This document shows positions 1 to 35,169 of a DNA stretch of 58,145 bases, one piece after another. The position numbers and the translations under genes are program-made. Numbering within the stretch: position 1 is the first letter of the stretch; each line of letters starts with the position of its first letter. The stretch is from assembly GCA_021298835.1 (NCBI GenBank), contig JAJTHG010000029.1:1-58145 (forward strand). Reading direction: 5' to 3'. The notes under the pieces were generated by a model. The model saw only the letters and a list, made by a program, of their open reading frames with translations. It was not told where the DNA came from and searched no databases. The stretch is from Gemmatimonadota bacterium (lineage in GTDB: Bacteria; Gemmatimonadota; Gemmatimonadetes; Gemmatimonadales; Gemmatimonadaceae).

Positions 1-3000
1 ATGGCCGGCGCGGTCACGGTGACCGTCAGAGGATAGCCGGCCCGCACCGGGGCCTGCGCCGCCCCGGTCGCCGTCGCCGTGACCGTCGTCGTGCCGGCGA
101 CGAGGCCCCGCACTCCGAAGGTCGTGCTCGCGCTGCCGACCGGGATCGTCACCTGTGCCGGCGACCCCGCCGTGCCACCCACCACCGGCACCGCCACGCT
201 CGGCGTGCCGGTCGCGACATCCACGACCACGGCCGCACCACCCGCCCGCAGCGCCTGCTGGGTCACGTTCGTGCCGGCGGCGTTCAGCGGCCCGACCCAC
301 GCCGTCCAGCTCAGGTCCGCCGACAGCGTCGTCGTCGCCGTGCTCCCGCTCGCCTCCACCCCCAGCGGCCGGATCGTCACCGTCGCCGGCGTGGGCGCGG
401 TGTAGTACTGCGCCGGCGCGGCGCTGATCGTCGCCGTCGTCGCCGTCGTGAGGCCTTCGAGGCCGCTGTAGAAGACGCTCACGCTCGAACTGCCCTGCGG
501 GATCGTCAGCGTGAGACTGCCCGTGCCCGTCGTCGTGGCGTTCGGTGCCAGCACCAGGCGTGTCGGGTCGGACGACGTGAAGGTCACGCTCACCCCGCCC
601 GCCGGGGCCGCGGTCTGCAAGTTGTAGCTGATGGACGTCGTCGTTCCCGACCCGACCTCGCTCACGCCGCCGAACGAACTGCTCGGCGCAGGATTCACGG
701 TCACCGACATCGAGTCGGACGCAAACCCAGGCACGGTCGCCACGACGAACGTCGTGCAGGGGGTCGGCGCGGAGCCGCCGTAGCCGAGCGCCGTGGCTAC
801 CTGGGTCTGCCCCTGCGGTACCAGTACTGACGTCGGCACGTTCACGCAGGCGGGATTGCGCGCCGTCAACGACACCGAGATGCCGCCGCTTGGCGCGGCG
901 AACGCCGAGCCGCCACTCGTCAACCGCGACGTGATGACCGCGCTGCTGAAGGCCGTATTCAGGGTCGCCGACGTCTCGATGACGTCGAGGGCGGCCGTGA
1001 CCGTCACGACGGACGTGCCGGTGGCCAGATTCGGGCCCGTCACCGTGACGGTGGTGGAGCCCAGTCCGATACCGTCGAGCAGCGCATTCCCGATCACGAA
1101 TCCCTGCGGCACAACGACCGTCTGCTGCAGCACGGTGACCCGGGTCGGATCGGCCGAGGTGACGGTGAGGGTCGTGCCACCGGGCGGCGCCGGTGTGGGG
1201 AGGGTGATGGGGAGCGTCGTCTGTCGCGTGAATGGTGCGTTGAGTGACAGCGGTACCGAGATCGTGTTGGTTGATACCGGCACCACCAACGAACCGTCGG
1301 TGTAGCCGGCCGTCGTTGCCGTCAGCGTGGCCGAACCTGCGGCGACACCGGTGACGGTGAACGTCGCGGTGGTACCGCCGCTGGCCACCAGCACGGTGGT
1401 CGGGGCCGCGACCGACAGCACCGACGCATTCCCCGAGCTCAGCGACACCGAGACGCCGCCGTTCGGCGCCGGCCTGGCCAGGGTCACGCGGACCTGCTGC
1501 GTGCCGTTCACGCCGACGAGTGGGGTGTTGACGAGCGCCACCGTCTGTCCGGGCAACGTCGCGGTGGCTCCGACGGTCACGCTCGGGTTGGTGCCACCGG
1601 TCGCTTGGGCCGTCAGGGACTGGCCGCCGGTGGTCGGGCCAAGGGTCCACGTGGTCTGGACGCGTCCTGTGGCGTCGGTGGTCGCACTCGACGGCGTCGT
1701 GCTCCCCGATCCGGTGAACGAGACGGTCACGCCCGGGAGGGGCGCGCCGCCAGCGTCACGAACTTCGACGACGATCGGCTGCGGCAGCGCCGCGCCCGTC
1801 AGCCCCGACTGCGCATCGCCACTGACGATGACCATCGCTGCCGGCACCGGCGCGGCGACATCGATGGCCGTCGTGGCACTGGTGAACTCGGCCTGCGCCG
1901 TCACCTGCGAACCGCCCGGTGCCGCGCCGGTCACCACGGCCTGCCGCGCGCCGGCGCTCGTGAGCGTGAGCACGGCCGCGTCGGCGACGCTCCACGTGAC
2001 CGGCACGCTCGCGGGGACCGTGCCCCCGATGGCGTCGGTGGCGGTCGCGTCGATGGTCGCGGTGCCGCCGACGACGATGTTGCCGTTCGTCGGCGTGCGG
2101 GCGAGCGTGAGCTGCGCGATCGGCAGCGGGTCGGCGGGCAGGAGCGTGCGCCGTCCCGCCGCGACGGGATCGACCAGGATGCCGGTGCCGAGCGCGACGT
2201 TGCGGCCGACGCACCAGCGATCGCCCACGGCATCGACCGCGCAGGTGTAGCGATCGCCCACGGCACCCAGCCGCACCGGGTTGCGCGCGTTGAGCACCGT
2301 CGCGGGGGTCGGCACCCACGTGCGGCCGTTGACGCTGCCGCGGCCGGTCTCGCCGTTCTCGTCGTTGCCCCAGCACCACCAGAGCCCGGTGCCGGTCGCG
2401 CGCCCGCACGTGAAGTAGCCGCCGACGCGCAGTTCGGTGTAGCGCGTGAGGCCGTTGACGGCGACGGGTTGCGGGGCCGACTGCGGGCCCGGCACGACGC
2501 CGATGCCGCCCTGCCCCACGAACTGGTCTCCCCAGCACCACGCCTGACCGTCCGTGGCGAGCCCGCAGCCGTGGAACCAGCCGTTGACGACCTGCGTGAA
2601 GCGCACGGTCGTGGCGAGCGGCGTCGGGGACAGCACGTCGCCGGCGTTGCCGGTGCCGGTCGTCCCGCCGAAGCCCCAGCAGTAGCCCTGGCCGTCGGTG
2701 GCCAGCGCACAAGCCCCGGAGCTGCCAGCCGAGACGTCGGTGAACCGGGCGCTGGTGTTGACCGGCGTCGGGACGAGGCGGGGCGCGGTGCTCCCGCTGC
2801 CAAGCCGCCCGTTCGCCGGTTCGCCCCAGCAATGGAGAACGCCGTCAACGCGCACTGCGCACGCGAATCCCTCGTACCCGACGTCGAGCGCGACGTACGG
2901 GCCGGGAACGCTCACCGCCAGTGGCGTGAGGAAGCGGTCGGTGGTGGTGGCGTCGCCCAGCTGACCGGCGTAGTTGGCACCCCAGCACAAGACGCGGCCA

Positions 3001-5321
3001 AGGTCGTCGAGGGCGCAGGCGAAGCCCAAGCCGACGCCGACCTGCCGCCAGTTGCCCGCCGGCAGGGCCACCTCGGCCTCGCGCACGCGGTTCACGTTGG
3101 TACCGTCGGCGAAGCCGGCGTTCGGGTTCGTCCCCTGCCCCCGGCGACCGACGCAGAAGACGCGACCGTTGCGCACCGAGCAGGAGGCGTCGGGCCCGCC
3201 GTCGTCGCGCAGAGCGACGAGAGGCATCGCGGTGCGGGTGCTCGTCGCGGTGACGGCCCCCACCGTGGCCGTCAGGACGACCGCACCGGTCCCGCTGCCG
3301 CGCGAGAGGGTGAAGGTGCGGGGCCCCGTGCGCGTCACGCCGAAGACCTCCGGACGATCCACGGCGAGGTCGGCCGTGACGTCCACCGTGCCGCCGCCGA
3401 TGTCGCGCACCACGAGGGTCGCCGTGACGGGACCCGTCCCGAAGGCGTACGTATCGGCGTCGGGCCCGAGGACGATCTCGATCGCCGCCGCCGCCAACTG
3501 GACGGGGACGATCACCGTGTCGGCGACGACCGGTGTGACCGACTGGACCGTGGCCACGATTCGCGCCAGGCCGCCGGCGACGGCCGTGGCGGTCGCGGTG
3601 AGGGGGCCGGTCGCGCTGACCGTCGCGACCGTCGGGTCGAGCGAGGTCCACGTGACGGCGGCTCCCGGCACCGCCGTGCCTCCGTCGCTGACGGCGGCGG
3701 TGAGGGTCGCCCCGGCGCCGACAGCGGTCAGCGTCGGTACGGGATCCGGCGTGATCGTCACGGCCACGGAGGACGCGGCCGCGACCGTCAGGGTGGCCGC
3801 TCCGCTCAGCGCGGGGGTGGTGCCGTCCACCGTTGCGGTGATCGTGGCGGTGCCCGCCGCCACGCCGGTGGCGATCCCCGTGGCGGAGACGGCGGCGACG
3901 GTCGGGGCGCTCGAACTCCACGTCACGGTGGGGGAGGAGATCGCGGCTCCGCCCGCGTCGCGGACGACCGCTTCGAACGGTCGCGTGGCGCCGACAGCGA
4001 CGGTGCCGGTGGCCGGGAGGACGGCGACCGAGGCGGGAACCTGCGCGACGGTCACGGGGACCTCGTCGCGGACGAGGACCGGCTCACGACCCTGCACCGT
4101 GACGATGATGCGGGTCTCGCCGTTGGCCACGGCCGTGACGGTGCCGTCGGCGCCGACGGTGGCGATTGCCTCGTCGAGCGAGCGGTACTCGATGACGGCG
4201 CCTGCGACGACGTTGCCGCGTCCATCGCGCGGCACGGCGGAGAGCGCGACCGTGGCACCCAAGGCGCCGAGGGTGACGGTCCGCGGCGACGCGACGACCT
4301 GCGTGACGGCACCAGCCGTGGCCGTCGCGTCGAAGCGCGCGGGCACGGCGCTGCCGCTGGTGGCCGCGGCCTGCACGGGACCCGACGTGGAGCCGAGCGT
4401 CCACGTGGCGCTCGCGCGACCGTCGGCGTCGGCGGTGGCCTGCGCGGGGGTGACGGTCCCCTGCCCGGCGTTGGCGGCGAAGGCGATCGACGCCGCCGCC
4501 ACCGGATTGCCGAAGCGGTCGATGGCGCGTGCGACGAGCGGCTGCGGCAGCGGGGTTTCGATGGCACCGGTCTGGCCGCCGCCGGAGATCGCGAGCAGCG
4601 TCGCGACCGGACCGGCGCGCGCGGTGGCACCGAAGGCGAGTGTGGTGCCGGGCAGGCTCGGCGTCTCCGCCGTCGCCCTTTGCGCACCGAGGACCCGTTC
4701 AGCGAGTGTCCACGTGGCGCGGGCGACGCCGGTGGCGTCGGTGCGGGCGGTCGTGAGGCCGGTGCCGCCGGCGTCGCGGTCGAACGTGAAGCGGACCTCG
4801 GCGTCGGGGACGGGATCGCCGCGACGGTCGAGCAGGCGCACGGCGAGGAGTTGCGGGAGGGGATCGCCGACGGGGCCGGTCTGGGCGTCGCCGGCGACGC
4901 GCTCGAGGCGATCGGGGACCTGCCGGATGGTGACTAGGGCCGTCGCGCGCAGGACGCCGAGGGTGCGGACGAGGGCGGTCACCGAGGCGACGCCGCTGCG
5001 GATGGCGGTGACGGTGCCGTCGTCGGTGACGGTCAGGCGCGTCGTGTCGCCGGATTCCCAGCTGATGGTGGTGCCTTCGGGGATGTCCTGGAAGGCGACG
5101 CCGAACTGGTCGAGGAGTTCGAGCGTGAGGCGGGTGGAGGCGCCGTCGTCGAGGGTGAGGGGGGTGGTGGAGAGTCGGGCGGTGCGGACGCGCCGGGTGA
5201 CCGCATCCTCGGGGGAGGCGATGTACTCGGCGCAGGAGATGCCGGTGGCCCCGATGGCGGCCGCCGCGACGAGGCCGCGCCACCGGCGCAGCCACCCGAT
5301 CGCCCGCCCGGTCCTCGTCAT
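1..5321 (-). CDS. Giant secreted Big_2 (bacterial Ig-like group 2) / RCC1-repeat protein. It is partial: the C-terminus runs beyond the window start and the N-terminal ATG is at 5319-5321.
   Basis: Manual minus-strand translation in the frame whose codon top coordinate is congruent to 2 mod 3. N-terminus MTRTGRAIGWLRRWRGLVAAAAIGATGISCAEY is signal-peptide-like. Big_2 motifs such as VTWSSSAPTVAAVSATGIATGVAAGTATI occur near 3840-3960. RCC1-type repeats (GLWWCWGNDENGETG, RWCVGRNVALGTG, CWG...GQLG) occur near 2200-3200, followed by more Big_2 repeats down to position 1. The ORF track lists no minus ORF in this frame, which fits an open frame running off the window edge. The plus-strand 2974..5469 and 1605..4937 ORFs are its low-complexity shadows. 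Confidence 0.7.
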   Translation of the reverse strand, partial: MTRTGRAIGWLRRWRGLVAAAAIGATGISCAEYIASPEDAVTRRVRTARLSTTPLTLDDGASTRLTLELLDQFGVAFQDIPEGTTISWESGDTTRLTVTDDGTVTAIRSGVASVTALVRTLGVLRATALVTIRQVPDRLERVAGDAQTGPVGDPLPQLLAVRLLDRRGDPVPDAEVRFTFDRDAGGTGLTTARTDATGVARATWTLAERVLGAQRATAETPSLPGTTLAFGATARAGPVATLLAISGGGQTGAIETPLPQPLVARAIDRFGNPVAAASIAFAANAGQGTVTPAQATADADGRASATWTLGSTSGPVQAAATSGSAVPARFDATATAGAVTQVVASPRTVTLGALGATVALSAVPRDGRGNVVAGAVIEYRSLDEAIATVGADGTVTAVANGETRIIVTVQGREPVLVRDEVPVTVAQVPASVAVLPATGTVAVGATRPFEAVVRDAGGAAISSPTVTWSSSAPTVAAVSATGIATGVAAGTATITATVDGTTPALSGAATLTVAAASSVAVTITPDPVPTLTAVGAGATLTAAVSDGGTAVPGAAVTWTSLDPTVATVSATGPLTATATAVAGGLARIVATVQSVTPVVADTVIVPVQLAAAAIEIVLGPDADTYAFGTGPVTATLVVRDIGGGTVDVTADLAVDRPEVFGVTRTGPRTFTLSRGSGTGAVVLTATVGAVTATSTRTAMPLVALRDDGGPDASCSVRNGRVFCVGRRGQGTNPNAGFADGTNVNRVREAEVALPAGNWRQVGVGLGFACALDDLGRVLCWGANYAGQLGDATTTDRFLTPLAVSVPGPYVALDVGYEGFACAVRVDGVLHCWGEPANGRLGSGSTAPRLVPTPVNTSARFTDVSAGSSGACALATDGQGYCWGFGGTTGTGNAGDVLSPTPLATTVRFTQVVNGWFHGCGLATDGQAWCWGDQFVGQGGIGVVPGPQSAPQPVAVNGLTRYTELRVGGYFTCGRATGTGLWWCWGNDENGETGRGSVNGRTWVPTPATVLNARNPVRLGAVGDRYTCAVDAVGDRWCVGRNVALGTGILVDPVAAGRRTLLPADPLPIAQLTLARTPTNGNIVVGGTATIDATATDAIGGTVPASVPVTWSVADAAVLTLTSAGARQAVVTGAAPGGSQVTAQAEFTSATTAIDVAAPVPAAMVIVSGDAQSGLTGAALPQPIVVEVRDAGGAPLPGVTVSFTGSGSTTPSSATTDATGRVQTTWTLGPTTGGQSLTAQATGGTNPSVTVGATATLPGQTVALVNTPLVGVNGTQQVRVTLARPAPNGGVSVSLSSGNASVLSVAAPTTVLVASGGTTATFTVTGVAAGSATLTATTAGYTDGSLVVPVSTNTISVPLSLNAPFTRQTTLPITLPTPAPPGGTTLTVTSADPTRVTVLQQTVVVPQGFVIGNALLDGIGLGSTTVTVTGPNLATGTSVVTVTAALDVIETSATLNTAFSSAVITSRLTSGGSAFAAPSGGISVSLTARNPACVNVPTSVLVPQGQTQVATALGYGGSAPTPCTTFVVATVPGFASDSMSVTVNPAPSSSFGGVSEVGSGTTTSISYNLQTAAPAGGVSVTFTSSDPTRLVLAPNATTTGTGSLTLTIPQGSSSVSVFYSGLEGLTTATTATISAAPAQYYTAPTPATVTIRPLGVEASGSTATTTLSADLSWTAWVGPLNAAGTNVTQQALRAGGAAVVVDVATGTPSVAVPVVGGTAGSPAQVTIPVGSASTTFGVRGLVAGTTTVTATATGAAQAPVRAGYPLTVTVTAPA

Positions 5322-7414
5322 CAGAAGGGCCTCGACATCGCCAGCGTCAGGAACGATTCGCGGAAAGCGGGACGCGTGGCAAACGCCGAGTAGGCGTTCC
5401 AGCGCCCCTGCAGCAGCAGCGACGCCTCGTACGGCAGCTGCCACGTGGCCTGAACCCGCGCCGCGGTGACTTGGCGGCCGGCGGTGAAGGTCCGCGAGAG
5501 CGTAGCGGACGAGTTGAGCCGGTCCTTCCACCCGCGGGCCTGCGCGCGGAAGCCGACGAACGCATTGCGCTGCGCCGTGCCCCCGGCCGGTGCCGTCACC
5601 GCCCACGACAGCGAGGGCGCGAGCGCAATGGCATCGGTCAGGTTCACCTGCTCGCTCACGGTGACGTTCTGGACCGTCACGTCGGGGGCCAGAGGGCGCG
5701 GCGCCGCGTCATCGGTGCGCTGGAACGTCCATGCGAGGGTCGTCGTCGCCCTGCGGCCGAAGACGCCATGGGTGAGACCGGCGCCGGTGTTGAGCGACAG
5801 CATCCGCACGTCCCGCCGGAGACTGTCGTCCGGGGCATCGTTGCCGACGAGATTGTAGAGCGCGTTGGCCGAGAGACTCACCGACTCGACCGGCCGCACG
5901 CTGATCGCCGCGACGTAGTTGTCGCGTCCGGTGGTGAACGTCTTCTGGCCGAGGACGTTGTCCGCCATGCGTTGCGCCTGCAGCGACAAGGTGCCGCGCG
6001 CGCCGAGGAACGGGACGGCGCCGCCGAGCATCCACGAGCGGCGGTCGCCGATCAGGTAGCCGAGCCCGAGCGATGTGTACCCGGGACCGATGCGCTCGAC
6101 CTGACCGCGCAGCGAGACGCCGCCGAGGGCGAGCTGGGCCTCGCCGTTCCACGCGACGTCGCCGTGGGTGGAGAGCCGCAAGGGCATCAGGGGATCGAGC
6201 ACGTCCAGCGCGCCCCCTGCCCCGTCAGCGATACGCGGCCGCGTGATGTCGCTCGACAGCAGGGCGCCGGCCACCTCGCCCTTGAGGCGCAGGGTCTGGC
6301 GGAAGAGCGGAAGCTCGAGTGCGAGACCGCCGACCAGATTCTCCTGAGGGCGCGTGGACGCCTGCGGCCGCGGGCGGAACGGGTCGAGCAGCGTGTCGGC
6401 GACGAGCGAGTCGAGCGCGAGGGAATCCGCGATGAGCAGGTTGCGCTCGACCGAGTTCGGGTTGTCCTTGGCATGGGCCACGGAAACGCCGACGCCGAGC
6501 CCGCTTCCGTGGCGCCATTCGAGGTTGCCGGCCGACAGGCGGCGCTCGAAGACGAGCTGGTCGCCGGGCCGCGAGACGGCACGCTGGGTGCGCCCCGTCT
6601 GCACATTCGCCTGCCACCCGCCGAAGCGCAGGTCGAGCCCTGCCCCGCGCGACCGCACACCCTGCACCGTGTACTGGGTCAGGGGTCGCGAGAAGTCGCC
6701 GAGGTAGAGCTTGCCCCAGCTCCACTCCGGGTTGAATCCGGCCTGGTTGATGTTCTGCCGCAGCTGCGTCCCTTCGGAGGAGAACAGCGCGTCGGCGGTC
6801 GCGGAGATGCCGAAGCCGAGGTCGATGCGAGGCGACACCTGGGCGCGCCACGAACTCCCCGGGCGGCGACCCGGCTGGCCGACGCTGCCGTAGGCCTCAC
6901 CTGTCAGGTTGACGTCGCCATGGACGCGCTGCCGGGCGACGCCGTAGAGGGCCCGCATCGCACGCGGGTCGCGCGGCGGCGGCTGGGTGGCCGTGGCGGG
7001 AGCCGCTCTGGTCGCTGCGGCGCGGGACCGCCACGTGGAGTCGGCGCCGATCGCCGCTCGGGGGACCGTACGAGCCGGACCCCAACGCGACCGGATGACC
7101 GCTGACGGTCCGATCAACGACCGCACGGTCGCGGCCTGCTCTGCGGCGACGGACGCCGCGGCCCCGGGCCCATCGGCGGGTCGAGCACACGGAGCGGCGC
7201 AGGCGCTGTCGCGAAGGGAGGGACGCCGCACCGAGTCCGCCGATGCAAGGCGATCGCGTCGCCCATCACCGACGAACGACGGGACGGTGTCCCGCCGCTC
7301 CCCCCGGGATGAGACACCGCGCGGAGCCGCGATCGCGGCCGCGCAGGGCACGAGCATGCAAGCGGCGAACACGCCAATGGCGGTCGCCGGGCGTCGCCGG
7401 AGGCGTCGGATCAC
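5321..7414 (-). CDS. Putative outer-membrane beta-barrel protein (~697 aa).
   Basis: C-terminus ...RESFLTLAMSRPF ends in Phe, with alternating hydrophobic residues typical of OMP barrels. The body is Gly/Ser/Thr/Asn-rich with many short beta-strand-like segments. The proposed GTG start at 7412-7414 gives signal peptide V-IRRLRRRPATAIGVFAACMLVPCAAAIAAP and overlaps the upstream stop as GTGA. The listed ORF 5321..8239 extends further but that part is Arg/Gly junk overlapping the TPR gene. An alternative start at ATG 6958 would lack a signal peptide. Confidence 0.5.
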   Translation of the reverse strand: MIRRLRRRPATAIGVFAACMLVPCAAAIAAPRGVSSRGERRDTVPSFVGDGRRDRLASADSVRRPSLRDSACAAPCARPADGPGAAASVAAEQAATVRSLIGPSAVIRSRWGPARTVPRAAIGADSTWRSRAAATRAAPATATQPPPRDPRAMRALYGVARQRVHGDVNLTGEAYGSVGQPGRRPGSSWRAQVSPRIDLGFGISATADALFSSEGTQLRQNINQAGFNPEWSWGKLYLGDFSRPLTQYTVQGVRSRGAGLDLRFGGWQANVQTGRTQRAVSRPGDQLVFERRLSAGNLEWRHGSGLGVGVSVAHAKDNPNSVERNLLIADSLALDSLVADTLLDPFRPRPQASTRPQENLVGGLALELPLFRQTLRLKGEVAGALLSSDITRPRIADGAGGALDVLDPLMPLRLSTHGDVAWNGEAQLALGGVSLRGQVERIGPGYTSLGLGYLIGDRRSWMLGGAVPFLGARGTLSLQAQRMADNVLGQKTFTTGRDNYVAAISVRPVESVSLSANALYNLVGNDAPDDSLRRDVRMLSLNTGAGLTHGVFGRRATTTLAWTFQRTDDAAPRPLAPDVTVQNVTVSEQVNLTDAIALAPSLSWAVTAPAGGTAQRNAFVGFRAQARGWKDRLNSSATLSRTFTAGRQVTAARVQATWQLPYEASLLLQGRWNAYSAFATRPAFRESFLTLAMSRPF

Positions 7415-8184
7415 TCGGCGCCCCCGGCGCGCGAGCGCGCCACGGCCTGTGCCTCGTCGAGCCGCCCCATGCGCTGCAGGACCTCGACCTCGCGGTCGAG
7501 CAGCGTGACGTCCTTCGGGCGCCGCTGCCGCAGTCGGCGCACCTGCATCAGCAGCCGCTCGAGCGGGTACTCCGGGGCCAGCCCCACGAGCGACCGGAAC
7601 GCCGTCTCGTCCGTCGGCTCGAGTTCGAGGACCGTGACCCATGCCGCGGCCGCCGCCGCCTGTCGTCCGGTCGCGGCCGCCGCGCGGGCGCGGCCGCGAT
7701 GCCACGCCACCGCGGCGGGGTCCCGCCGCGCGAGCACGAGGTACAGTCGGCCCGCCGAGTCGGCGAGGCCGATTCGCATGGCGCGGTCGGCGGCGTGGCC
7801 GAGGATGGTCGCGTTGCGCGGATACAGCGCGGCAATGACGCGCAAGCGACGGTCTCCCCATGCGCCGGCCGCGGCATAACCGTCGAGCGCCATGCGAAGC
7901 GCCTCGACGCTCTGGTCGCGCAGGCGGGCGGCCGCCGTATCGGCCGATACGCGCTCGCCGGTGACGGCGCCGAGCAGCTTTCGCTCGGCCTCCTCGATCC
8001 CGCCCAACGCTGCCGCTGACGCGCCATCGAGTGCCACACGCCGGATCCCCTCGTCGCGGGTCGTCAATGCCGTCGCGACGGCCGAGCGCGGATCGCGCGG
8101 CTGTCCGCCGGCGACCGGGACGGCAGCGGCGTCGAGGACGGCCAACAGCATGGTCGGCACCACCAGTGCCCGCGGTCGCCTCAT
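7411..8184 (-). CDS. Secreted TPR-like helical repeat protein (257 aa).
   Basis: N-terminal signal peptide MRRPRALVVPTMLLAVLDAAAVPVAG. Ala/Leu/Arg-rich helical repeats (AVAWHRGRARAAAATGRQAAAAAAWVTVLELEP...). The start ATG overlaps the upstream stop as ATGA at 8181-8184. Confidence 0.5.
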   Translation of the reverse strand: MRRPRALVVPTMLLAVLDAAAVPVAGGQPRDPRSAVATALTTRDEGIRRVALDGASAAALGGIEEAERKLLGAVTGERVSADTAAARLRDQSVEALRMALDGYAAAGAWGDRRLRVIAALYPRNATILGHAADRAMRIGLADSAGRLYLVLARRDPAAVAWHRGRARAAAATGRQAAAAAAWVTVLELEPTDETAFRSLVGLAPEYPLERLLMQVRRLRQRRPKDVTLLDREVEVLQRMGRLDEAQAVARSRAGGAE

Positions 8185-10202
8185 GGCCGTCGCTCCGCGC
8201 GGGCCCAGGGGCTCGGATCGCTCTCATGCCCGGCGACATCGACCGCCCGCACCACGTAGAAGCTGGCCGCGGTACCGGCCGGATCGACGAACTGCAGCGC
8301 CGTCACCGGAGCCCGGGTGATGCGCCCGTAGCCGCCCGCCGCGGCGGTGGAGCGATAGACGTGGTATCCGGCGAGTCGCGGGTGCACGACGCGTTCCCAT
8401 TCGACGCGGACGCCGCCGGGCTGCAGCGTCGCGGCCGCGAACCGGGGGGGCGACGGGGGCACGTTGTCCACGAGCGACACCGAGTCCCGGATCGGCGCGC
8501 TGCGGTTGCCGGCGCTGTCGATCGCGGTGACGCGATAGACGGCCCGATCGCCGATGCGAAGACCGGAATCGCGAGCGACGAGCGGGGCCCCGACCGGCAG
8601 GCGCCCCAGCGGCACGGAGACCGAGCCCTGCGGGCCGCGCTCGCGCGCGAGTTCGTAGGCTGCGACGTCGAGCGACGCACTGGCGGTGACGCGCAACTCG
8701 ACGGAGCCGTCGGGGCGGACGGTAGCCACGAGCGGACCCGGAGGAGCGGGCGGTTCGTCGTCGGGGACCTGGACGGTGTCCCCGGGACTCTTCGATTGGT
8801 TGTAGAAGCGGTCGAGGGCGACGACCCGGTACACGAGCCGGCGTCCGGGGACGACCGCGCTCGACGAGTCGATGAACAGGCCGCCGCGAATCGCCACCGC
8901 AGTGATCTGTTGGTCGGGCTGCCCGACGGGCCCACGGTAGATGTAAGCGCCGCGATCGCCGGGCGTGGTCGACGGCGTCCAGCGCACGGTGACGCGACGC
9001 CGTGCGGCGGTGACCGTCACGCCGGTGGGAGGCGGTGGGGGCTCGGCGTCATACGGCGTGGCCGAGATGCCGGAGGTGAAGGGCCCCAGGTTGCCGGCCG
9101 AGTCCACCGCCGCCACCCGGTAGAAGTAGACGTCGCCCGCCCGTGCGACCGTGTCCGTGAACTCGGGGACGTCGCGGGGGATCGTGCCCCGGGTGAGGCG
9201 CGTCCAGACGCGCGTCCCGCCGACCGATCGCTCGACGACGTAGCCCGCGACGTCCGGGGTCGGGGCCGCCGCCCAGACGACGCGCACGCGCTCCTGTCCG
9301 GGCTGCGTGACGACCTCGCGCGGGACGGGCGGCGGTTCCCGGTCGCCGAACGCGACGCCGATGCGCGCCGCGCCACCCGGCTCGACACCGGCCCCGTCAA
9401 CGGGGACGACGAGGTAGGTGTAGCGGCTGCCGCCGATCACATCGCGATCGACGAACAGGTACGGCTGCTTCGCCGTGCGGAGGACGGGGAGAATCGTCAG
9501 TGGCGTCCGCGCGCTGTCACCGGAGACCTGCCGCAGCACCCGGAAGCCGAGCACCGCGTCGGCGCCATCGGCGAACTCGGGATAGCGCCACGTGAGCGTC
9601 ACCGCGTCGCGCGACGTGCGCGCCGCGAGCGCGGTGACCGATGGCGTGGGTAGCGGGGCCGCCACGGCCCGACGGAGGAACGGCGAACCGTCCGGCGCGT
9701 CGTCCGGTCCGAGGACCGTCACGCGGTATTCGTAGGCCGCGCCCGGTGCGACGGCGGTATCGACGAGCCGCCGCGCCGTGACCCGCCCGACCGCCGGCAC
9801 CAAGGCACTGAGCAATGTCCCGAGACCGGCGTCAACCTCGAGCCGCCGAATCGCCTCGAGCTCGACGAGGGCCCCCGTCGCCAGCTGCACCGTCTCCATG
9901 CGATCGCCGATGAGGGCGATGGCGTCTGCGGGCTCCCGGACCGCGCGCACGATCCCCGGGTACACCGGCCGCCATTCCCCGGCACCGGTTGCCGGACCGG
10001 CGGGCGAGGCACGTCGCTCGACCCTGAATCCGAAGCGATACGGCAGTCTCCCGGCGACGATCAACACGATCGAATCGCTCGCGGGGATCGCGGACAGGGT
10101 CCGCACCTGCGCCCGCACGGCCGCAGGGAACGCCCCCGCGGTGCCGACCGTCAAAAGGCCGAGCGCGCACGCCGCAGCTGGACGCATCCGTACTCGCGTC
10201 AT
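8181..10202 (-). CDS. Secreted fibronectin type III repeat protein (~673 aa).
   Basis: Signal peptide MTRVRMRPAAACALGLLTVGTAGAFPAAVRAQ. Repeated FN3-type segments: PPxPP linkers, then ...VTVRWTPS..., then Y[RV]V.A[VI]D.AGN.S strand-F/G signatures (YRVAAVDSAGNLGP, YRVTAIDSAGNRSAP, YVVRAVDVAGHESDPS). The start ATG overlaps the giant gene stop as ATGA at 10199-10202. Confidence 0.65.
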   Translation of the reverse strand: MTRVRMRPAAACALGLLTVGTAGAFPAAVRAQVRTLSAIPASDSIVLIVAGRLPYRFGFRVERRASPAGPATGAGEWRPVYPGIVRAVREPADAIALIGDRMETVQLATGALVELEAIRRLEVDAGLGTLLSALVPAVGRVTARRLVDTAVAPGAAYEYRVTVLGPDDAPDGSPFLRRAVAAPLPTPSVTALAARTSRDAVTLTWRYPEFADGADAVLGFRVLRQVSGDSARTPLTILPVLRTAKQPYLFVDRDVIGGSRYTYLVVPVDGAGVEPGGAARIGVAFGDREPPPVPREVVTQPGQERVRVVWAAAPTPDVAGYVVERSVGGTRVWTRLTRGTIPRDVPEFTDTVARAGDVYFYRVAAVDSAGNLGPFTSGISATPYDAEPPPPPTGVTVTAARRRVTVRWTPSTTPGDRGAYIYRGPVGQPDQQITAVAIRGGLFIDSSSAVVPGRRLVYRVVALDRFYNQSKSPGDTVQVPDDEPPAPPGPLVATVRPDGSVELRVTASASLDVAAYELARERGPQGSVSVPLGRLPVGAPLVARDSGLRIGDRAVYRVTAIDSAGNRSAPIRDSVSLVDNVPPSPPRFAAATLQPGGVRVEWERVVHPRLAGYHVYRSTAAAGGYGRITRAPVTALQFVDPAGTAASFYVVRAVDVAGHESDPSPWARAERRP

Positions 10203-13200
10203 GGCGGCCAGCCCTGGCGGGTGGACGTGGTCGCGCGGGCGCCGGACGTGGTCATGCCGGCACCGGACGTGGCCGTCGCAGCGGCCCGATCCCTCATGAC
10301 CGCCCCCGTGGTGCCATCGGGCAACTGCATGGAGGGCGGCCCCTGCTCGATCACGATGCCACGGGATGCCCAGTCCGACCACATTCCCGCCCCGTTACGG
10401 CTCCGGATCATCAAGACCGGCGCGGCCTGACTCGCGTCGCCCGTCGGCACGGCCACCGAGAGGGACGTCGCCCCGGGGGTGAGCGTTCCGCCCAGACTCG
10501 GCGCCGGGGTGCCCCACAAGGCCGCGAGGACGTTCCAGTGGAATCGCCACTCGATCTCGAGCAGTCCCGAGTGGGGATCCGCCGGTGCCGCGAAGCTCGC
10601 GTTCAGGCAGCGCGTGCCAGAACTCACCGTGCCGCAGCTCGCGAGCCACGGCAGTCTCGCCGACGCGATGGTCGGGGTCGCAGGCACCGACCCGTCCCAC
10701 AGCATGTCACCGGCCGCGCCGTAAACGGAGGCCTGCCCGGCGCCGTTGACGGCCTGCAGCGCGACGCGATAGCTGTGCCCGTCCGTCAGTCCCACCGGCG
10801 GCAGGTTGACGCTGATGCCCGAGACCAGCGAGGGCCAGTCAACGGCCGCTCCCCCCGGAAGCTCGCGCACCCATGCGTTCGCGGTGACGTCCCAGATGCC
10901 GTACCGGTAGCCGGCGACGCCGGTCTCGTTGTCCCGCGACAGCCGCAGGGGAGAGAGGACGAAGGTCCCGGCGGAGACGAGATCCGCGCAATAGACCGGG
11001 TCGGCCGGCCCGGTCGGATCCGGGAATCGGAAGGGCGTGGAGGCAAGGACGGGCGAGACGTTGCCGGCCACGTCGAGCGCGACGCCGTAGAGTGTCCAGT
11101 CCCGTTCGAAGGCGCGTCGGGCGCGGGCCCAGGTGCCGGGGTCCATCGTGGAAGCGCTCGGGCCATCGAGGGAGCGCAGCGTCTGCCACGTGTCCGCCTG
11201 CCACGTCGCGGAGTCGTACGCCGCCACCGGCAGGGTGTCGAGCCGCCAGGCAAAACGCTGGACCCCCGAGCGGGTATCGGTGGCGGTGGGCACCCTGAAG
11301 GAGACCACGGCCGGCGCGGGTGCCGCGGACCGGAGCGGCATCATCGTCGGCCGCATGCCCAGGCAGGCGTCGCCGAGGCGCGCGGGTGCGGTGGGGGTCC
11401 CCGTCGAGCGCGGGAATCCGGTCACGGTCCCGGGGGTGCCGCCAAGTGTGCCGCCAAGTGTGACGCCAAGTGTGCCGCCAAGTGTGCCGCCAAGTGTGCC
11501 GCCAGAGCCGCTGCCGATGGCGAGCGCGTTCTCGACGAACCTCGCATTGGCCGGCCACGCGGGCCCCGTCGTATCGAGCGCCACGCCGTCGCTCATCGCG
11601 GCGGTGGGGATCCCGCTGCCGTTCTCGACTTCGACCGTCACGTGAATGGGCGGGGCATCCTCGCGCAGGTCGAGACTCGGCAGGCCGATCCACTGGCGGC
11701 CGCCGACCGAGCGCGCGTTCTCGAGGAGCGTGAAGGACGAGGACGACGCGACCGACTTGTCGATGAAGCCGCTCGCACGGAACAGGGTGAGGCGGCTGTC
11801 GCGGATGCCCGACTCGTGATCGCGCGCATCCCAGCGGAGGATGACGTCGCGCGGATCCCGGACCCATGTCACGAACGGCGTCGTCGCCTGCCGTCGCCCG
11901 CCCTCCCAACGCGGGGCGAGCACGAAGGCAGGGGGGGTGACGTCGGCCCCGGCGGTCGTGGTCGTCGGCCTCACCTGCGTCGAGGCGTCCCACCGCACGA
12001 CGGGGAGGGTGACGACCCCGCTCTGCTGTCCGCGATAGCCGGCGCCTCCCCGCGCCGCCACGGTGACCAGCCCGCTCGGCGGCGGCGGATTGCCGACACG
12101 AGCGGCGCGCCAGGTGGTGAAGGTGGCGGTGCGCACGGATCCGGCGGCGACCGACGGCTGCGTCGCAGAACCGGCGGCGGCCCGTTGGTTGGTGACACCG
12201 CCTCGCAAGGTGGTCGGCGCGCCGAGCGACATGAAGCCCGTTGCCGTCCCCGCCACGTTGTCCCGGATCTGGAACTCGTGGATCCCGTCAGGATGCTGGG
12301 CGTTCCAGCGATAGGTGGTCGTCACGAGGTACCCATCGACTGACGTGGTCACCTGGAAGCCCGACACCGTCGGCACGGTGAGCTCGCGGGCGAGCTCCGC
12401 CTTGCGGGTGGTGAACGTCGCGACCTGCGCGGGCGTCAGCGTGCCGTCGGTCAGCAGGATGCGATCGTAGAGATCGTACAAGGCGCCGGCGGCATCGGCC
12501 TGCACCTGGTTGAGCCGGTCGAGGGCCGCCGCCAGCCGCATGGCATTGGCTCTGGCGATGCCGAAGCTCGTCGCCCGGCGGGTCTCGAGCGCCACCAGCA
12601 GACTGTCGGTGGACTTGCGTGCCGATTCGTAGCCCGCCCGGAACGTGCCCCACCAGAGGTCTTCGCCGAGCTGGTTGGCGTACATCGCGTCGGTCGCACC
12701 GGTGGGACGCGCCGCCGGCGGTTTCTGCGTCAGCGCCTGCAGCCGGTCGGTCCGCTGGGTGATGAGACGCGTGACTTCGCCGGCATTCAACGTCGAGGTC
12801 CGGGCGGCGATCGACTGACTGGCCAGCGGGCGGTCGGCGTCCAGCGCGGCGACTTCACCCCGGAACTCGTTGCGACGCCGGGCGAGATGATTGCCGACCT
12901 GTCCCAGGACGCGGTCGATGCGGGTGACGACGGCCGCGTAGGCGGACGCGGTCGCCATGAGCGAGCCGGACGCGGCGCTGCGCGTCGCGCCACGGACCGA
13001 CGCGAGCACCTGCTCCAGCTCGTCGATCCGGAGTCTCGTGCCCGCGGCGACCGCCGCGCCCTGCGCATCGGACGTCGCGGCTGTCGCGGCGTTATTCCGA
13101 ACGGCGTCGGGTCGTGCAGACATGGTCGGGCCACTGACCAACTGGGCGGCCGTTATCGTCTCGTTCAGCGGTCCGAGCCCCGATTCGCCCTTGCTGCCAG

Positions 13201-30701: not shown

Positions 30702-32000
30702 CTACTCTCCGTCGTCGACTCGGCGCGTCTGGTTGAGCGAATTCACCAGCCCCTTGAGGTCGATCCCCAGCGTCGCCGCCGCCCCTTCCAGCAACTGCCA
30801 CGTCCCCGCCACCCGCGCGGAGGTCGCGTTGCCGATCGCGTTCCCCTGCCCCCCATCCATGACAATCAGCTTCTCGATCGACATCCCCTTGGCCCCGTCC
30901 GCCGCCACCTGCACCAGCGCCGGCAGCTGCTGGAGCAGCAGCAACGGAATCGCCTGTTCGGGATTCCGCTGCAGCGTCTCGAGAATCGCCGCCGTCGCCT
31001 CCGCCCGCGCCTTGCCCTCCTCGCGCAGCGGCGCCGCCGCGGCCTGCGCCTCGAGCAGGGCACGGCGCTGCGCCGCCTCGGCCGGCTTGATCACATCGGC
31101 CAGGAGGCGTCGCTCCTCGAGCTCCGCGCGCGCCAGCTGGACCGCCTGCTGCGCCCGGGCTTCGGCCTCGAGTGCCGCCGCGCGCGCGACCTTCTCGGTG
31201 GTCTCGGCTTCCTGCTCGAGCTGGGCGCGTCGGACGCGGAGCTGGTTCTCGGCCTCCGACACCGCCCGCGACGCGTTGGCCGCGGCCACGCGCGCGCGCT
31301 GATCCGCCTCGGCCCGCGAGATCTCCGCGAGCGACTTGGCCTGCGCTTCGGCAATCTCCGCATTGCGCAGCACCTCGGCGGTCCGGGCTCGGGCGTTGGC
31401 GATGAGGTAGCCATTGTCGTCCGAGATCTGCTGCAGCTTGAGCAGGTCGAGCTCGAGGCCGAGCGACGCCAGCGAGCGCGAGGCCTCGTCGAGCAGCGCG
31501 CGCTCGAAGCGCTCGCGATCCTCGTTGGCCTCTTCGGGGGTGAGCGTGGCGAGCACGCCGCGCAGCGCCGCCATGAGCGTCTCGTTGGCGAGGCGCTTGA
31601 TCTCGTTCGGGTCGCGGTCGAGCAGCCGCTCGATCGCGTTGGCGAGCACCGCCGCCGGCCGCGACGCCACCTTGACGTTGGCGACGGCATCCACGTTGAG
31701 CGCGATGCCGCCCTTCGAAATCGCCCCCTTCACGGTGATGTTCACCTGCATCACGTCGAGCGACAGGTATTGCACGCGCTCGAGGATCGGAATGACGAGC
31801 GTACGCCCGCCGCTCACGAGCCGATACCCGCGCAACTCGCCGTCGGACTCGCGCGTCGCACCGGTGATCACCGAGACGACGTTCGGCGGTACCACGAGCA
31901 GGAACTTGAGCAGCGCGGCGACGACGAGTCCGACGGCCATCACGACGATGAAGCCGGTGCCGAGGGCACCGATGGGCAACTGCGCGAGAAGCGTGTCCAT
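30702..32000 (-). CDS. floT: Flotillin-like SPFH/band-7 domain protein.
   Basis: Translation from ATG 31998-32000: MDTLLAQLPIGALGTGFIVVMAVGLVVAALLKFLLVVPPNVVSVITG... The N-terminal membrane hairpin, SPFH core (VQYLSLDVMQVNITVKGAISKGGIALNVDAVANVKV), and long Ala/Glu/Arg-rich coiled coil (EA/EAQ flotillin repeats) are typical of YuaG/FloT. The track ORF 30702..32255 has an 85-codon junk N-extension. Confidence 0.85.
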   Translation of the reverse strand: MDTLLAQLPIGALGTGFIVVMAVGLVVAALLKFLLVVPPNVVSVITGATRESDGELRGYRLVSGGRTLVIPILERVQYLSLDVMQVNITVKGAISKGGIALNVDAVANVKVASRPAAVLANAIERLLDRDPNEIKRLANETLMAALRGVLATLTPEEANEDRERFERALLDEASRSLASLGLELDLLKLQQISDDNGYLIANARARTAEVLRNAEIAEAQAKSLAEISRAEADQRARVAAANASRAVSEAENQLRVRRAQLEQEAETTEKVARAAALEAEARAQQAVQLARAELEERRLLADVIKPAEAAQRRALLEAQAAAAPLREEGKARAEATAAILETLQRNPEQAIPLLLLQQLPALVQVAADGAKGMSIEKLIVMDGGQGNAIGNATSARVAGTWQLLEGAAATLGIDLKGLVNSLNQTRRVDDGE

Positions 32001-32037
32001 GGCAATTGAGAGGGGCTCTGGGAAACGGGACCGCGCG

Positions 32038-32550
32038 TCAGCGCGGCGAAACGCGAAGCACGCCGTCGGCGTCGATGGCGTCAACCGCCACGGGCGCGTC
32101 ACCTGGCACGGCGGTTGACGAGGCGGCCTCGACATCCGTCCAGCGGGCCCGCAGTTCGCGGACGGCACCGCCCGAGGTGAGGCGCACGAGGCCCACGGGC
32201 TGCGCCGACGTCGGCGGCAGGATCCAGCGACCGTCGGCGGCCAGGAGGTCGGCATCGGTCAGGGGGCGCGCCCCGTCGGTGCGTACCAGCCAGCGGAGTC
32301 CCAGCCGGCCGAGGGCCAGCACGACGCCGCCCGACACCGCCGCCATCGCCCACGCCAGAAGCGGCGTCGCGCCGAGCGGCCCGAGATGCAGCATCGCCAC
32401 CAGGCCGGCGGCCGACGACGCGGCCAGCCAGACGACACCACGCCGGCTCAGCGCACCGTGCACGCCGCCGCCATCTGCGCCATCCCCCACGACGAACAGC
32501 ACGCCGAGGAGGCCGAGGGACACCACGGTCAGGAAGACAGCGGCGGTCAT
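32038..32550 (-). CDS. NfeD-family membrane protein, partner of flotillin.
   Basis: MTAAVFLTVVSLGLLGVLFVV... has 3 hydrophobic helices, then a C-terminal soluble beta-rich domain (VRLTSGGAVRELRARWTDVEA...). It is ~170 aa and lies immediately upstream of the flotillin gene, as in yuaF-yuaG type operons. The alternative start at 32577 adds 9 aa. Confidence 0.65.
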   Translation of the reverse strand: MTAAVFLTVVSLGLLGVLFVVGDGADGGGVHGALSRRGVVWLAASSAAGLVAMLHLGPLGATPLLAWAMAAVSGGVVLALGRLGLRWLVRTDGARPLTDADLLAADGRWILPPTSAQPVGLVRLTSGGAVRELRARWTDVEAASSTAVPGDAPVAVDAIDADGVLRVSPR

Positions 32551-32632: not shown

Positions 32633-33780
<1,148 letters not shown>

Positions 33781-33803
33781 GGGGGACCAAGCTAACTTTG
33801 CGC

Positions 33804-35021
33804 ATGGCCACGGTCCGCATCCTGCACGCCGACGTCTCCGAGACCGGGGGCGCCGAGCTGCTCCTCGCGGCCCAGGCGCGCTGGCTCGCGGCGCAGGGCC
33901 ACGACGTGCGGGTGTTCGCGCTGCGAGGCGTCGGGGACGGGTGGCGACGCATCTTCGACGGGCTCGACGTCTCGGTGCTCGCCGCGCCGCCCAAGGTCGA
34001 GCGGCTGTCGGTCGCCGATATGGCGGCGCTCGTGGCGGCCGCGCGACCGGCACTGGCCGGGGCCGAGGCGGTGCTCGCCCACAACTTCCCCGCGGCACCC
34101 GTGGCCGCGCTCGCCGCGCCGGACTCGGCCCGCGTCACGTGGTACTGCCACGAGCCGTACCGCGCGCTGCACCCCGAGGCGACCTTCCCCGCGGCCGCGG
34201 CGCGCGCGGCGCGCGGCGGTGCGACCGACGCCGCGACGCGCCAGTACGCGCGGCGCGCGCGGCGCCGTCGGCTGCTGGAGGGCCTGTTTCCGTGGCGGGC
34301 CGCGCGCCGCGCCGCGCTCGTCGCGTGGGATGCCGCGCAGGTCGCGCGGCTCGACGCCGTGGTGGCGAACTCGGCCTTCAGCGCGCGCATGCTGTACGAG
34401 GCGCTTGGCCGCGAGGCGGATGCGGTCGTGCCGCCCGCGGTGACGTTCGGGCCGCCGCTGCGACCGCGCGGACCGCTGGATCGCGCGCGCCCGCAGGTGC
34501 TGGCCCTGACGCGGCTCGGGGTGCCCAAGCACGTGGACCTGCTGATCGCGGCGATCGGCCGGCTGCGCGCGCGCGTGCCCGGTGCGCACCTGCACGTCGC
34601 CGGCGAGGGGCCGCAGCGCGCGGCGCTCGAGGCCCTCGCCGCGCGCGTGGCCCCCGGGGCCGTCACGTTCCACGGGCACGTGCGGGCCGAGGCGGTCGAT
34701 GCGCTCGCCGCGCGGTGCGACGTGTTCGCGCTCGTGCCGGTGGACGAGCCGTTCGGGATGGTGTTTCCCGAGGCGGCGGCGCGCGGGCTGCTGCTGGTGG
34801 GACCCGATCAGGGCGGGCCGTCGGAGATCGTCCGCGACATCGGCGAGACGTGCGACGGCTTCGACCCCGAGGCCGTCGCGCACGCGATCGAGCGAGTGCT
34901 CGCGCTGCCCGACGCGGCGGTCGAGGAGCGGCGGCAGCGCGCCGACGCGACGGTCCGGGCGCGCTACGCGCCCGAGGTCGTGCTCCCCGCGCTCGAACGG
35001 TGGGTGCTGGGCGGCGCTTGA
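33804..35021 (+). CDS. Glycosyltransferase family 1 (GT4).
   Basis: MATVRILHADVSETGGAELLLAAQARWLAAQGHDVRVF... and ...VPVDEPFGMVFPEAAARGLLLVGPDQGGPSEIV are typical GT4 motifs. It is divergent from the other GT gene with only ~23 bp between the start codons. Confidence 0.8.
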   Translation: MATVRILHADVSETGGAELLLAAQARWLAAQGHDVRVFALRGVGDGWRRIFDGLDVSVLAAPPKVERLSVADMAALVAAARPALAGAEAVLAHNFPAAPVAALAAPDSARVTWYCHEPYRALHPEATFPAAAARAARGGATDAATRQYARRARRRRLLEGLFPWRAARRAALVAWDAAQVARLDAVVANSAFSARMLYEALGREADAVVPPAVTFGPPLRPRGPLDRARPQVLALTRLGVPKHVDLLIAAIGRLRARVPGAHLHVAGEGPQRAALEALAARVAPGAVTFHGHVRAEAVDALAARCDVFALVPVDEPFGMVFPEAAARGLLLVGPDQGGPSEIVRDIGETCDGFDPEAVAHAIERVLALPDAAVEERRQRADATVRARYAPEVVLPALERWVLGGA

Positions 35022-35089
35022 CCATCGCCCCCCGCGGGCGGTAGGCTTCCCGCGTTCCCGGCGTGCCGTCGTGCGCGCCAGCGGTCGTT

Positions 35090-35169
35090 CCGCGCCGCGC
35101 GCGCAGCCCCCGACCGACGCCTTCCCGACGCCCCTCGCTTCCCCTGGGCGTCCGCTCCCGTCCCGCCCG
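35090..35169 (+). promoter_or_regulatory. C-rich / G-poor 5' leader of rho (putative rut-like autoregulatory site).
   Basis: The ~80 nt before the rho ATG (…cccgaccgacgccttcccgacgcccctcgcttcccctgggcgtccgctcccgtcccgcccg) are strongly C-over-G skewed. Most of this genome is G/C-balanced, and Rho utilisation sites are C-rich and G-poor. Confidence 0.35.

Follow-up and report, generated by a model that had tools for sequence, protein, structure and literature searches.

A putative export or anchoring cassette of Gemmatimonadota and related phyla, formed around an outer-membrane β-barrel translationally coupled to a periplasmic TPR protein

Introduction

In synthase-dependent exporters of exopolysaccharides (PgaA, BcsC, PelB, AlgK/AlgE) tetratricopeptide repeats (TPR) precede a β-barrel of the outer membrane, either within one polypeptide or as a separate protein, and barrels of the PgaA/BcsC type are built of 16–18 strands. 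The barrel of Slam has 14 strands and that of ushers 24, while MtrB (with MtrA/MtrC) and LptD (with LptE) are 26-stranded barrels having a partner inserted into the lumen and a lipoprotein. FhaC, the barrel of two-partner secretion, has an N-terminal helix. Slam proteins, assigned to the type XI secretion system (T11SS), combine TPR repeats with the barrel and have their cargo genes adjacent (PMC5449769, PMC8406197). All these systems are considered here in relation to a pair of genes from contig JAJTHG010000029.1 of a Gemmatimonadota bacterium (assembly GCA_021298835.1), one encoding a TPR-family protein and the other a large barrel protein. The whole stretch analysed, of 58,145 nucleotides, is referred to below as the window. 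In its architecture the pair appears closest to Slam/T11SS, PgaA, BcsC, PelB and AlgK/AlgE, and in its logic to two-partner secretion and usher pathways.

The giant surface proteins discussed here have no secretion signals of types I, V or IX. An unnamed barrel family with about 3,170 representatives, coupled or fused to TPR proteins and tied to genes of FN3-repeat and giant proteins, offers a concrete candidate for the route by which giant Sec-exported surface proteins of Gemmatimonadota, Ignavibacteria, Zixibacteria, KSB1 and other environmental phyla cross the outer membrane and remain attached to it; this candidate is open to genetic test in any cultivable carrier. Two envelope proteins whose translation is coupled are encoded in the window, namely a periplasmic TPR protein exported by Sec and a barrel of the outer membrane. 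Judging by profile searches, the barrel comes from an extensive and still unnamed family of the Fibrobacteres–Chlorobi–Bacteroidetes (FCB) superphylum. The recurrence of the pair, sometimes in fused form, beside genes of giant surface proteins in several related phyla makes a dedicated device for export or anchoring probable. We estimate the probability of this interpretation as a whole, that is a coupled pair residing in a conserved cassette and having an export or anchoring role, at about one half.

Start codon of the barrel gene

According to the GC content of third codon positions, the minus strand of the window (overall GC content 72–76%) carries every gene between 1 and 30.6 kb. They follow each other in the order giant protein, FN3-repeat protein, TPR protein, barrel and lipoprotein with immunoglobulin (Ig)-like domains (Table 1), and stop and start codons overlap at all four junctions: by ATGA between the giant and FN3 genes and between the FN3 and TPR genes (TPR start ATG at 8184), by GTGA between the TPR and barrel genes, and by TGATG between the barrel and the Ig-like protein. 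At the TPR–barrel junction the stop codon TGA (7413–7411) and GTG 7414–7412 overlap within the four shared bases, and this GTG opens a frame of 697 codons extending to TGA 5323–5321.

Nine of ten public gene calls begin the barrel at ATG 6958 instead and thereby obtain a product of 545 amino acids. They do so because intrinsic statistics are ambiguous for the 152 codons in between, and in this respect two observations weigh against the GTG start. The third-position GC is 0.78 in the linker that joins the signal peptide to the barrel, versus 0.905 in the barrel, and the linker shows no coding periodicity; and a frame of 152 codons stays open in about 19% of shuffled sequences (p ~0.19). A search for population variation bearing on whether the linker is coding found none, ten assemblies being identical across the TPR and barrel genes. 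Under the public model translation would begin at ATG 6958, and the 456 nucleotides upstream would be an untranslated spacer, open by accident.

It is the comparison with relatives that decides in favour of GTG 7414. A TPR stop embedded in ATGA or GTGA, with the start codon in the barrel frame and a signal-peptide-like sequence behind it, was registered in 18 of the 23 loci having a TPR-family gene upstream, four of the 18 using the GTGA variant. Two nearest distinct relatives, P0002 (669 amino acids) and P0004 (704 amino acids), both 58% identical to the barrel of the window, also start in a four-nucleotide overlap with their own TPR genes and possess long linkers, and the similarity to P0002 begins 32 codons ahead of ATG 6958 (E = 0.003). 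Among the 61 homologues with a scorable N-terminus, 56 have a hydrophobic core resembling that of signal peptides, as does the GTG product, while the product of ATG 6958 has neither such a core (maximum Kyte–Doolittle value over 12 residues 0.25) nor a signal peptide. Moreover, only one frame, that of the barrel, is open across the linker region, and ATG 6958 lies within a helix (residues 150–163) of the modelled structure. The short model is therefore very improbable, and from these comparisons the 545-residue annotation is, in all probability, truncated. The same high degree of confidence applies to the gene model starting at GTG 7414 and the TPR–barrel pairing taken jointly. The sequence-only reading of this DNA had placed the start at the GTG inside the GTGA overlap and in front of a signal peptide, and the arrangement shared by most loci agrees with this proposal.

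Two other models were tried and rejected. An open reading frame of 972 codons (5321–8239) was ruled out, as third-position GC in the segment 7411–8184 follows the TPR frame, and the 678-residue model from ATG 7357, called in one assembly, would strip the signal peptide of its charged n-region.

The signal peptide of the GTG product, assessed by inspection and hydropathy, occupies the first 30 residues, V/M-IRRLRRRPATAIGVFAACMLVPCAAAIA, and is followed by AP. It contains five Arg residues in the n-region, an A-x-A cleavage site (AIA before AP) and a hydrophobic core with a maximum Kyte–Doolittle value of 2.35 over 12 residues, so that the protein has the N-terminal Sec signal expected for an outer-membrane barrel. 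Standard gene callers shorten this barrel in high-GC genomes, and since the 545-residue call drops the signal peptide, the protein would become hidden from surveys of outer-membrane proteins and secretomes that are based on signal peptides. Correction of the gene model is in itself routine, and the uncharacterised cassette deserves to be tested.

The barrel and its N-terminal tail

The AlphaFold2 model was built on an alignment of 30 sequences, and its strands were assigned by DSSP. In the model residues 164–696 form 26 β-strands, mostly with a predicted local distance difference test (pLDDT) value above 90, arranged in a closed antiparallel barrel with an even number of strands and a C-terminal aromatic residue, as in outer-membrane barrels. 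The protein ends with ...MSRPF, and terminal Phe is found in 47 of 62 homologues. Neither POTRA nor plug domains are present in the barrel model. Thus, the structure prediction that had been proposed for this protein returned 26 strands and no plug, and the earlier description of a true β-barrel lacking POTRA domains is supported both by the model and by outer-membrane barrels being its best structural matches. It counts against too literal a use of the strand number that it rests on DSSP from one AlphaFold2 model.

Neither Pfam nor NCBIfam models matched the barrel with E values up to 1, nor did any sequence of the PDB. In Foldseek searches no template modelling score (TM-score) exceeded 0.44, the best being that of MtrB (0.42–0.44). 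Ushers, TonB-dependent transporters, MtrB and LptD were the most similar structures, and top matches were all outer-membrane barrels. With scores so low, the protein has to be regarded as a large barrel with merely generic structural relatives. With E values up to 1e-3, profile searches collected 3,170 cluster representatives, and with 1e-30 the number was 1,161. The taxonomic distribution is a sample, obtained by scanning species genomes with one peptide pattern; it includes Gemmatimonadota, Ignavibacteria, Zixibacteria and Bacteroidota, to which KSB1 is added. Some members of the family have Ig-like insertions (P0071, residues 212–259; P0129, residues 610–671; Big_7 and Big_2), located apparently in loops or past the barrel.

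Between the signal peptide and the barrel lies the linker, which the sequence-only reading had described as Arg/Ala/Ser/Pro-rich and of low complexity. Residues 31–152 consist of 22% Ala, 17% Arg, 11% Pro and 11% Ser, and disorder is predicted there, since pLDDT is below 50 over residues 1–145 and rises to 54–78 in the helix 150–163. Across the family the linker varies from about 10 to about 150 amino acids, and the distance from the N-terminus to a conserved RRPG motif has a median of 65 residues. With 183 residues (counted from the translation) the protein of the window, like P0002 with 156, reaches or exceeds the upper limit of the values sampled. The suggestion that this segment serves as a periplasmic tether found no support: it has a free N-terminus once the signal peptide is cleaved off, and its length differs from protein to protein. 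Attachment of the barrel protein through a lipobox (FAAC, residues 16–19) was set aside, as most homologues have no Cys in this position and possess A-x-A sites followed by Q.

Alternatively, instead of being a translocon, the barrel might have a purely structural role in the envelope or act as a general porin; it could, for instance, attach a periplasmic or surface scaffold to the outer membrane, the TPR protein being its assembly factor. No SLH, OmpA-like or other peptidoglycan-binding domain was found in the N-terminal region, the length of the linker is not conserved, and strict co-occurrence with secreted repeat proteins together with fusions to TPR points to a dedicated rather than a housekeeping role, which makes this alternative quite unlikely.

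The TPR protein and its link to the barrel

The TPR protein of the window matches TPR_2 (E = 0.0025, 18.3 bits) below the 27-bit cutoff, and a search with the single sequence found only the protein itself, relatives being recovered when an alignment was used as the query. Its syntenic orthologues are 30–32% identical to it, and the assignment to the TPR clan comes from such relatives. Significant Pfam TPR matches were obtained for family members P0034–P0039, and the orthologues as well as fused proteins P0056 and P0060–P0062 carry significant repeats, all of them matching the hidden Markov model of the family. In low-GC Ignavibacteria and Zixibacteria the orthologues (L040, L038) are multi-TPR proteins of about 690 amino acids with E = 1e-44 to 1e-49, and their genes also overlap the barrel gene by four nucleotides.

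That the TPR protein and the barrel act as a unit, as had been presumed from this single locus, is supported by two kinds of evidence. At least five cluster representatives (P0009, P0056, P0060, P0061 and P0062) are single polypeptides composed of TPR, linker and barrel, and a TPR-family gene directly precedes the barrel in 23 further loci across phyla, including those of Zixibacteria and Ignavibacteria. In P0009 a Ser/Ala-rich low-complexity stretch connects the two parts and takes the place that the free N-terminal linker has in split barrels. For this reason we propose that the TPR protein may bind the disordered tail of the barrel. Against the general scheme stand six loci where the FN3 gene borders directly on the barrel gene and the TPR gene is missing from between the two, as well as some distant members of the barrel family that have no giant or no TPR neighbour.

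The wider cassette

The sequence-only reading had also placed the TPR–barrel pair between giant genes. This needs correction, since the gene of a 673-residue FN3 protein separates the TPR gene from the giant upstream, and the barrel is followed by the lipoprotein of more than 1773 amino acids. The FN3 protein had been overlooked, although it accompanies the barrel more regularly than the TPR protein does: of 37 genome loci, 29 proved in profile searches to have its homologue upstream in the same orientation, among them loci from Ignavibacteria, Zixibacteria and Bacteroidota. The full order giant–FN3–TPR–barrel was observed in eight loci with barrels 37–60% identical to that of the window, and in seven of these eight an Ig-domain protein comes after the barrel. 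Besides Pfam fn3, the FN3 protein has a weak RGI_lyase-like C-terminal domain.

This β-sheet match is located at residues 655–724 (window 8184–8380), and the same weak RGI_lyase match was seen in FN3 orthologues from Ignavibacteria and Zixibacteria (L040, 148–888; L038, 241–897). The coincidence suggests, at the level of sequence, a conserved terminal domain of the FN3 protein adjoining the TPR gene.

The repeats of the giant protein did not show themselves in a self-comparison by BLAST, which gave the identity match only, and were exposed when a segment was used as the query. Its N-terminal domain of about 240 amino acids (residues ~55–300, window 29700–30450), also overlooked previously, is encoded beside distant barrels as well: homologues were found at L003 15015–16085 (KSB1), L005 747–1499, L048 4614–5351 and L057 1231–1944, in the last case as a stand-alone protein of 247 amino acids. 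This domain may be a candidate for recognition or anchoring. Two tandem repeats were noted in the giant gene. A 12-nucleotide repeat coding for (GGTL)n in the C-terminal region (11436–11504, minus strand) looks prone to slippage, and its copy number apparently varies among otherwise identical assemblies, giving giants of 6791, 6795 and 6799 amino acids. A 21-nucleotide repeat (2.4 copies, 10223–10272) corresponds to the Thr/Ser/Gly/Ala-rich C-terminal end of the giant, immediately ahead of the overlapping start codon of the FN3 gene.

The downstream Ig-like protein has a lipobox ending in ...ATGISC and followed by AEYIASPE, and all four orthologues examined (window 5200–5321, minus strand; L016 8013–; L001 11865–; L004 11740–) are lipoproteins. 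The Cys residue is followed in them by a common pattern, C-[AD]-[ED]-[YV]-[IV], with an acidic residue at +2 or +3 (C-A-E-Y-I, C-D-D-V-I, C-A-D-Y-V). These residues may recall the lipoprotein export signal of Bacteroidetes, K-(D/E)2 or Q-A-(D/E)2 (PMC5080379), though the resemblance should be taken as a lead, not as a test. All proteins of the cassette bear Sec or lipoprotein signals, and domain searches found no TPS (two-partner secretion), type IX C-terminal, RTX or autotransporter domain in them.

Based on this resemblance one can suppose that the barrel serves only the downstream lipoprotein, either flipping it in the manner of Slam/T11SS or holding it in a complex similar to MtrB–MtrC, LptD–LptE or SusC–SusD, and that the giant goes elsewhere. 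The conserved lipobox with its acidic residues, the overlap of the lipoprotein gene with the barrel stop and its presence in most syntenic loci would fit this scheme, as would the combination of TPR repeats, barrel and adjacent cargo genes typical of Slam. A TPR orthologue (L040) even scored above the Pfam threshold of TPR_Slam, and MtrB has the highest Foldseek TM-score; the TPR models cross-match freely, however, so that the TPR_Slam match is weak, and there is no sequence match to DUF560, MtrB, LptD or TonB receptors. The lipoprotein is missing from L019 and from several distant loci, whereas the FN3 protein persists and so does the N-terminal domain of the giant. We therefore consider a barrel devoted to the lipoprotein alone unlikely and give preference to a device serving the cassette more widely.

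Comparison with known systems and possible function

The resemblance to Slam/T11SS is one of architecture only: a TPR module with a barrel, adjacent cargo genes and a lipoprotein gene directly downstream. The barrel of the window differs in having no DUF560 match and 26 predicted strands versus 14; the TPR and barrel parts are mostly separate genes; and the family belongs to FCB bacteria, not to Proteobacteria, with FN3-repeat and giant all-beta proteins as neighbours.

With PgaA, BcsC, PelB and AlgK/AlgE the pair shares the position of TPR N-terminal to the barrel, the existence of fused and split forms and a weak structural resemblance of the barrels. The TPR protein gives only a faint match to PGA_TPR_OMP (E = 0.007; cutoff 366 bits). 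It is conceivable that the pair is a porin of a synthase-dependent exopolysaccharide pathway, where the TPR scaffold passes the polymer to the barrel and the large neighbours are unrelated surface proteins. This alternative appears improbable. The conserved cassette encodes no synthase, copolymerase, receptor of cyclic di-GMP, polysaccharide deacetylase or lyase; its constant members are the FN3 protein and proteins with the domain of the giant, while glycosyltransferase genes are not conserved nearby; and the barrel, with its 26 predicted strands, is larger than the 16–18-stranded barrels of these exporters and has no sequence relationship to their families.

Chaperone–usher systems (FimD/PapC) differ from the pair in several respects. 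There is no Usher match in Pfam and no plug or N- and C-terminal domains in the model, no PapD-like chaperone gene was found among the neighbours examined, and the predicted strands number 26 versus 24 in ushers. Two-partner secretion (FhaC/FhaB) is close in logic, as it also unites a giant Sec-dependent all-beta exoprotein, having a conserved N-terminal domain of about 240 amino acids in our case, with a dedicated barrel, and a helix stands ahead of strand 1 in the model as in FhaC. Unlike this system, the locus lacks POTRA domains, a barrel of the ShlB/Omp85 type and a TPS (haemagglutination activity) domain, the place of POTRA being occupied by the TPR protein. As to the Omp85/TpsB group in general (BamA, TamA, FhaC), in which POTRA domains are joined to a Bac_surface_Ag/ShlB barrel of 16 strands, no Pfam or NCBIfam match was obtained at E up to 1, and the region preceding the barrel is disordered.

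MtrB and LptD are similar in the predicted number of strands, but neither shows a sequence match, cytochromes are absent and so is the N-terminal jelly-roll of LptD; thus the barrel could not be placed among them. The type IX secretion system (T9SS) proteins PorP/SprF, encountered with SprB-like adhesins in the same superphylum, likewise represent a dedicated barrel encoded beside the gene of a giant surface protein. The barrel of the window is much larger and does not match PorP_SprF, and neither the termini of the giant nor the lipoprotein contain a T9SS C-terminal domain of type A or B. Since every sequence or domain comparison that could have assigned the protein to one of these groups failed, it was set apart as a separate, uncharacterised family of barrels having a TPR partner. 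Literature searches brought up no account of this cassette.

The following scheme may be proposed for its operation. The TPR protein would dock at the periplasmic mouth of the barrel, perhaps through the disordered N-terminal tail of the latter, in place of the covalent link existing in fused forms. There it could act as a receptor or chaperone for the Sec-exported proteins of the cassette, the giant being perhaps recognised through its conserved N-terminal domain. The wide barrel devoid of a plug would provide a conduit or an anchor point, allowing the giant, the FN3 protein and/or the lipoprotein to reach the surface and to stay attached to it. A role of the barrel and TPR protein as an export conduit or anchor for the products of the giant, FN3 and lipoprotein genes is possible, and we put it forward tentatively. 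One should keep in mind, as an argument against the conduit, that a 26-stranded barrel without a plug could equally hold a partner protein and be an anchor. A still bolder and rather doubtful assumption is that the cassette represents an unrecognised secretion or anchoring system of FCB bacteria, which handles all-beta giants of up to ~6800 amino acids and includes no component of types I–XI. Its parts may be the plug-less barrel, the TPR receptor, the FN3 protein and cargo supplied with the N-terminal domain of ~240 amino acids.

Features of the locus and neighbouring genes

Table 1. Position of the cassette genes and their parts in the window
Feature	Coordinates	Strand	Characteristics or basis
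Giant secreted protein, 6802 codons	10199–30607	minus	N-terminal domain (~55–300) and about six all-beta modules of ~670 amino acids
FN3-repeat secreted protein, 673 amino acids	8181–10202	minus	Pfam fn3; ATGA overlap at both ends; signal peptide
TPR-family periplasmic protein, 257 amino acids	7411–8184	minus	Sec signal peptide, no lipobox Cys; third-position GC peak
GTGA overlap of TPR stop and barrel start	7411–7414	minus	Directly visible in the sequence
Signal peptide of the barrel protein, codons 1–30, GTG start	7325–7414	minus	Hydropathy and A-x-A site
Disordered Arg/Ala/Pro/Ser-rich linker, codons 31–149	6968–7324	minus	Composition; pLDDT <50
Short amphipathic helix, residues 150–163, just before strand 1	6926–6967	minus	DSSP on the AlphaFold2 model
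β-Barrel body, 26 predicted strands, residues 164–696, C-terminal Phe, stop TGA 5321–5323	5321–6925	minus	
Big_1/Big_2/RCC1/MG4 Ig-like lipoprotein, >1773 amino acids, runs off the window	1–5321	minus	Start ATG 5321; lipobox; Pfam

The barrel and TPR proteins of the window are identical to proteins in metagenome-assembled genomes of Gemmatimonadota. The absence of single-nucleotide polymorphisms over both genes in ten assemblies suggests a very clonal and widely sampled population, and the organism is present in no fewer than 22 assemblies. When the segment 4184–12184 was compared with loci L008 and L010, 8.8 kb proved to be identical to the Joint Genome Institute (JGI) metagenome contig Ga0068872_10000237 (L008). 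In several metagenome-assembled genomes two copies of the barrel cassette reside on separate contigs (L033/L035, L030/L036, L028/L034 and L037/L042).

Upstream of the giant, the minus strand of the window carries genes of an SPFH/Band 7 protein of 517 amino acids (30702–32255) and of a GT4 glycosyltransferase (32683–34098). Beyond the latter, on the plus strand, the Rho factor is encoded (34582–36474), which has a total length of 630 amino acids including an N-terminal extension of about 260.

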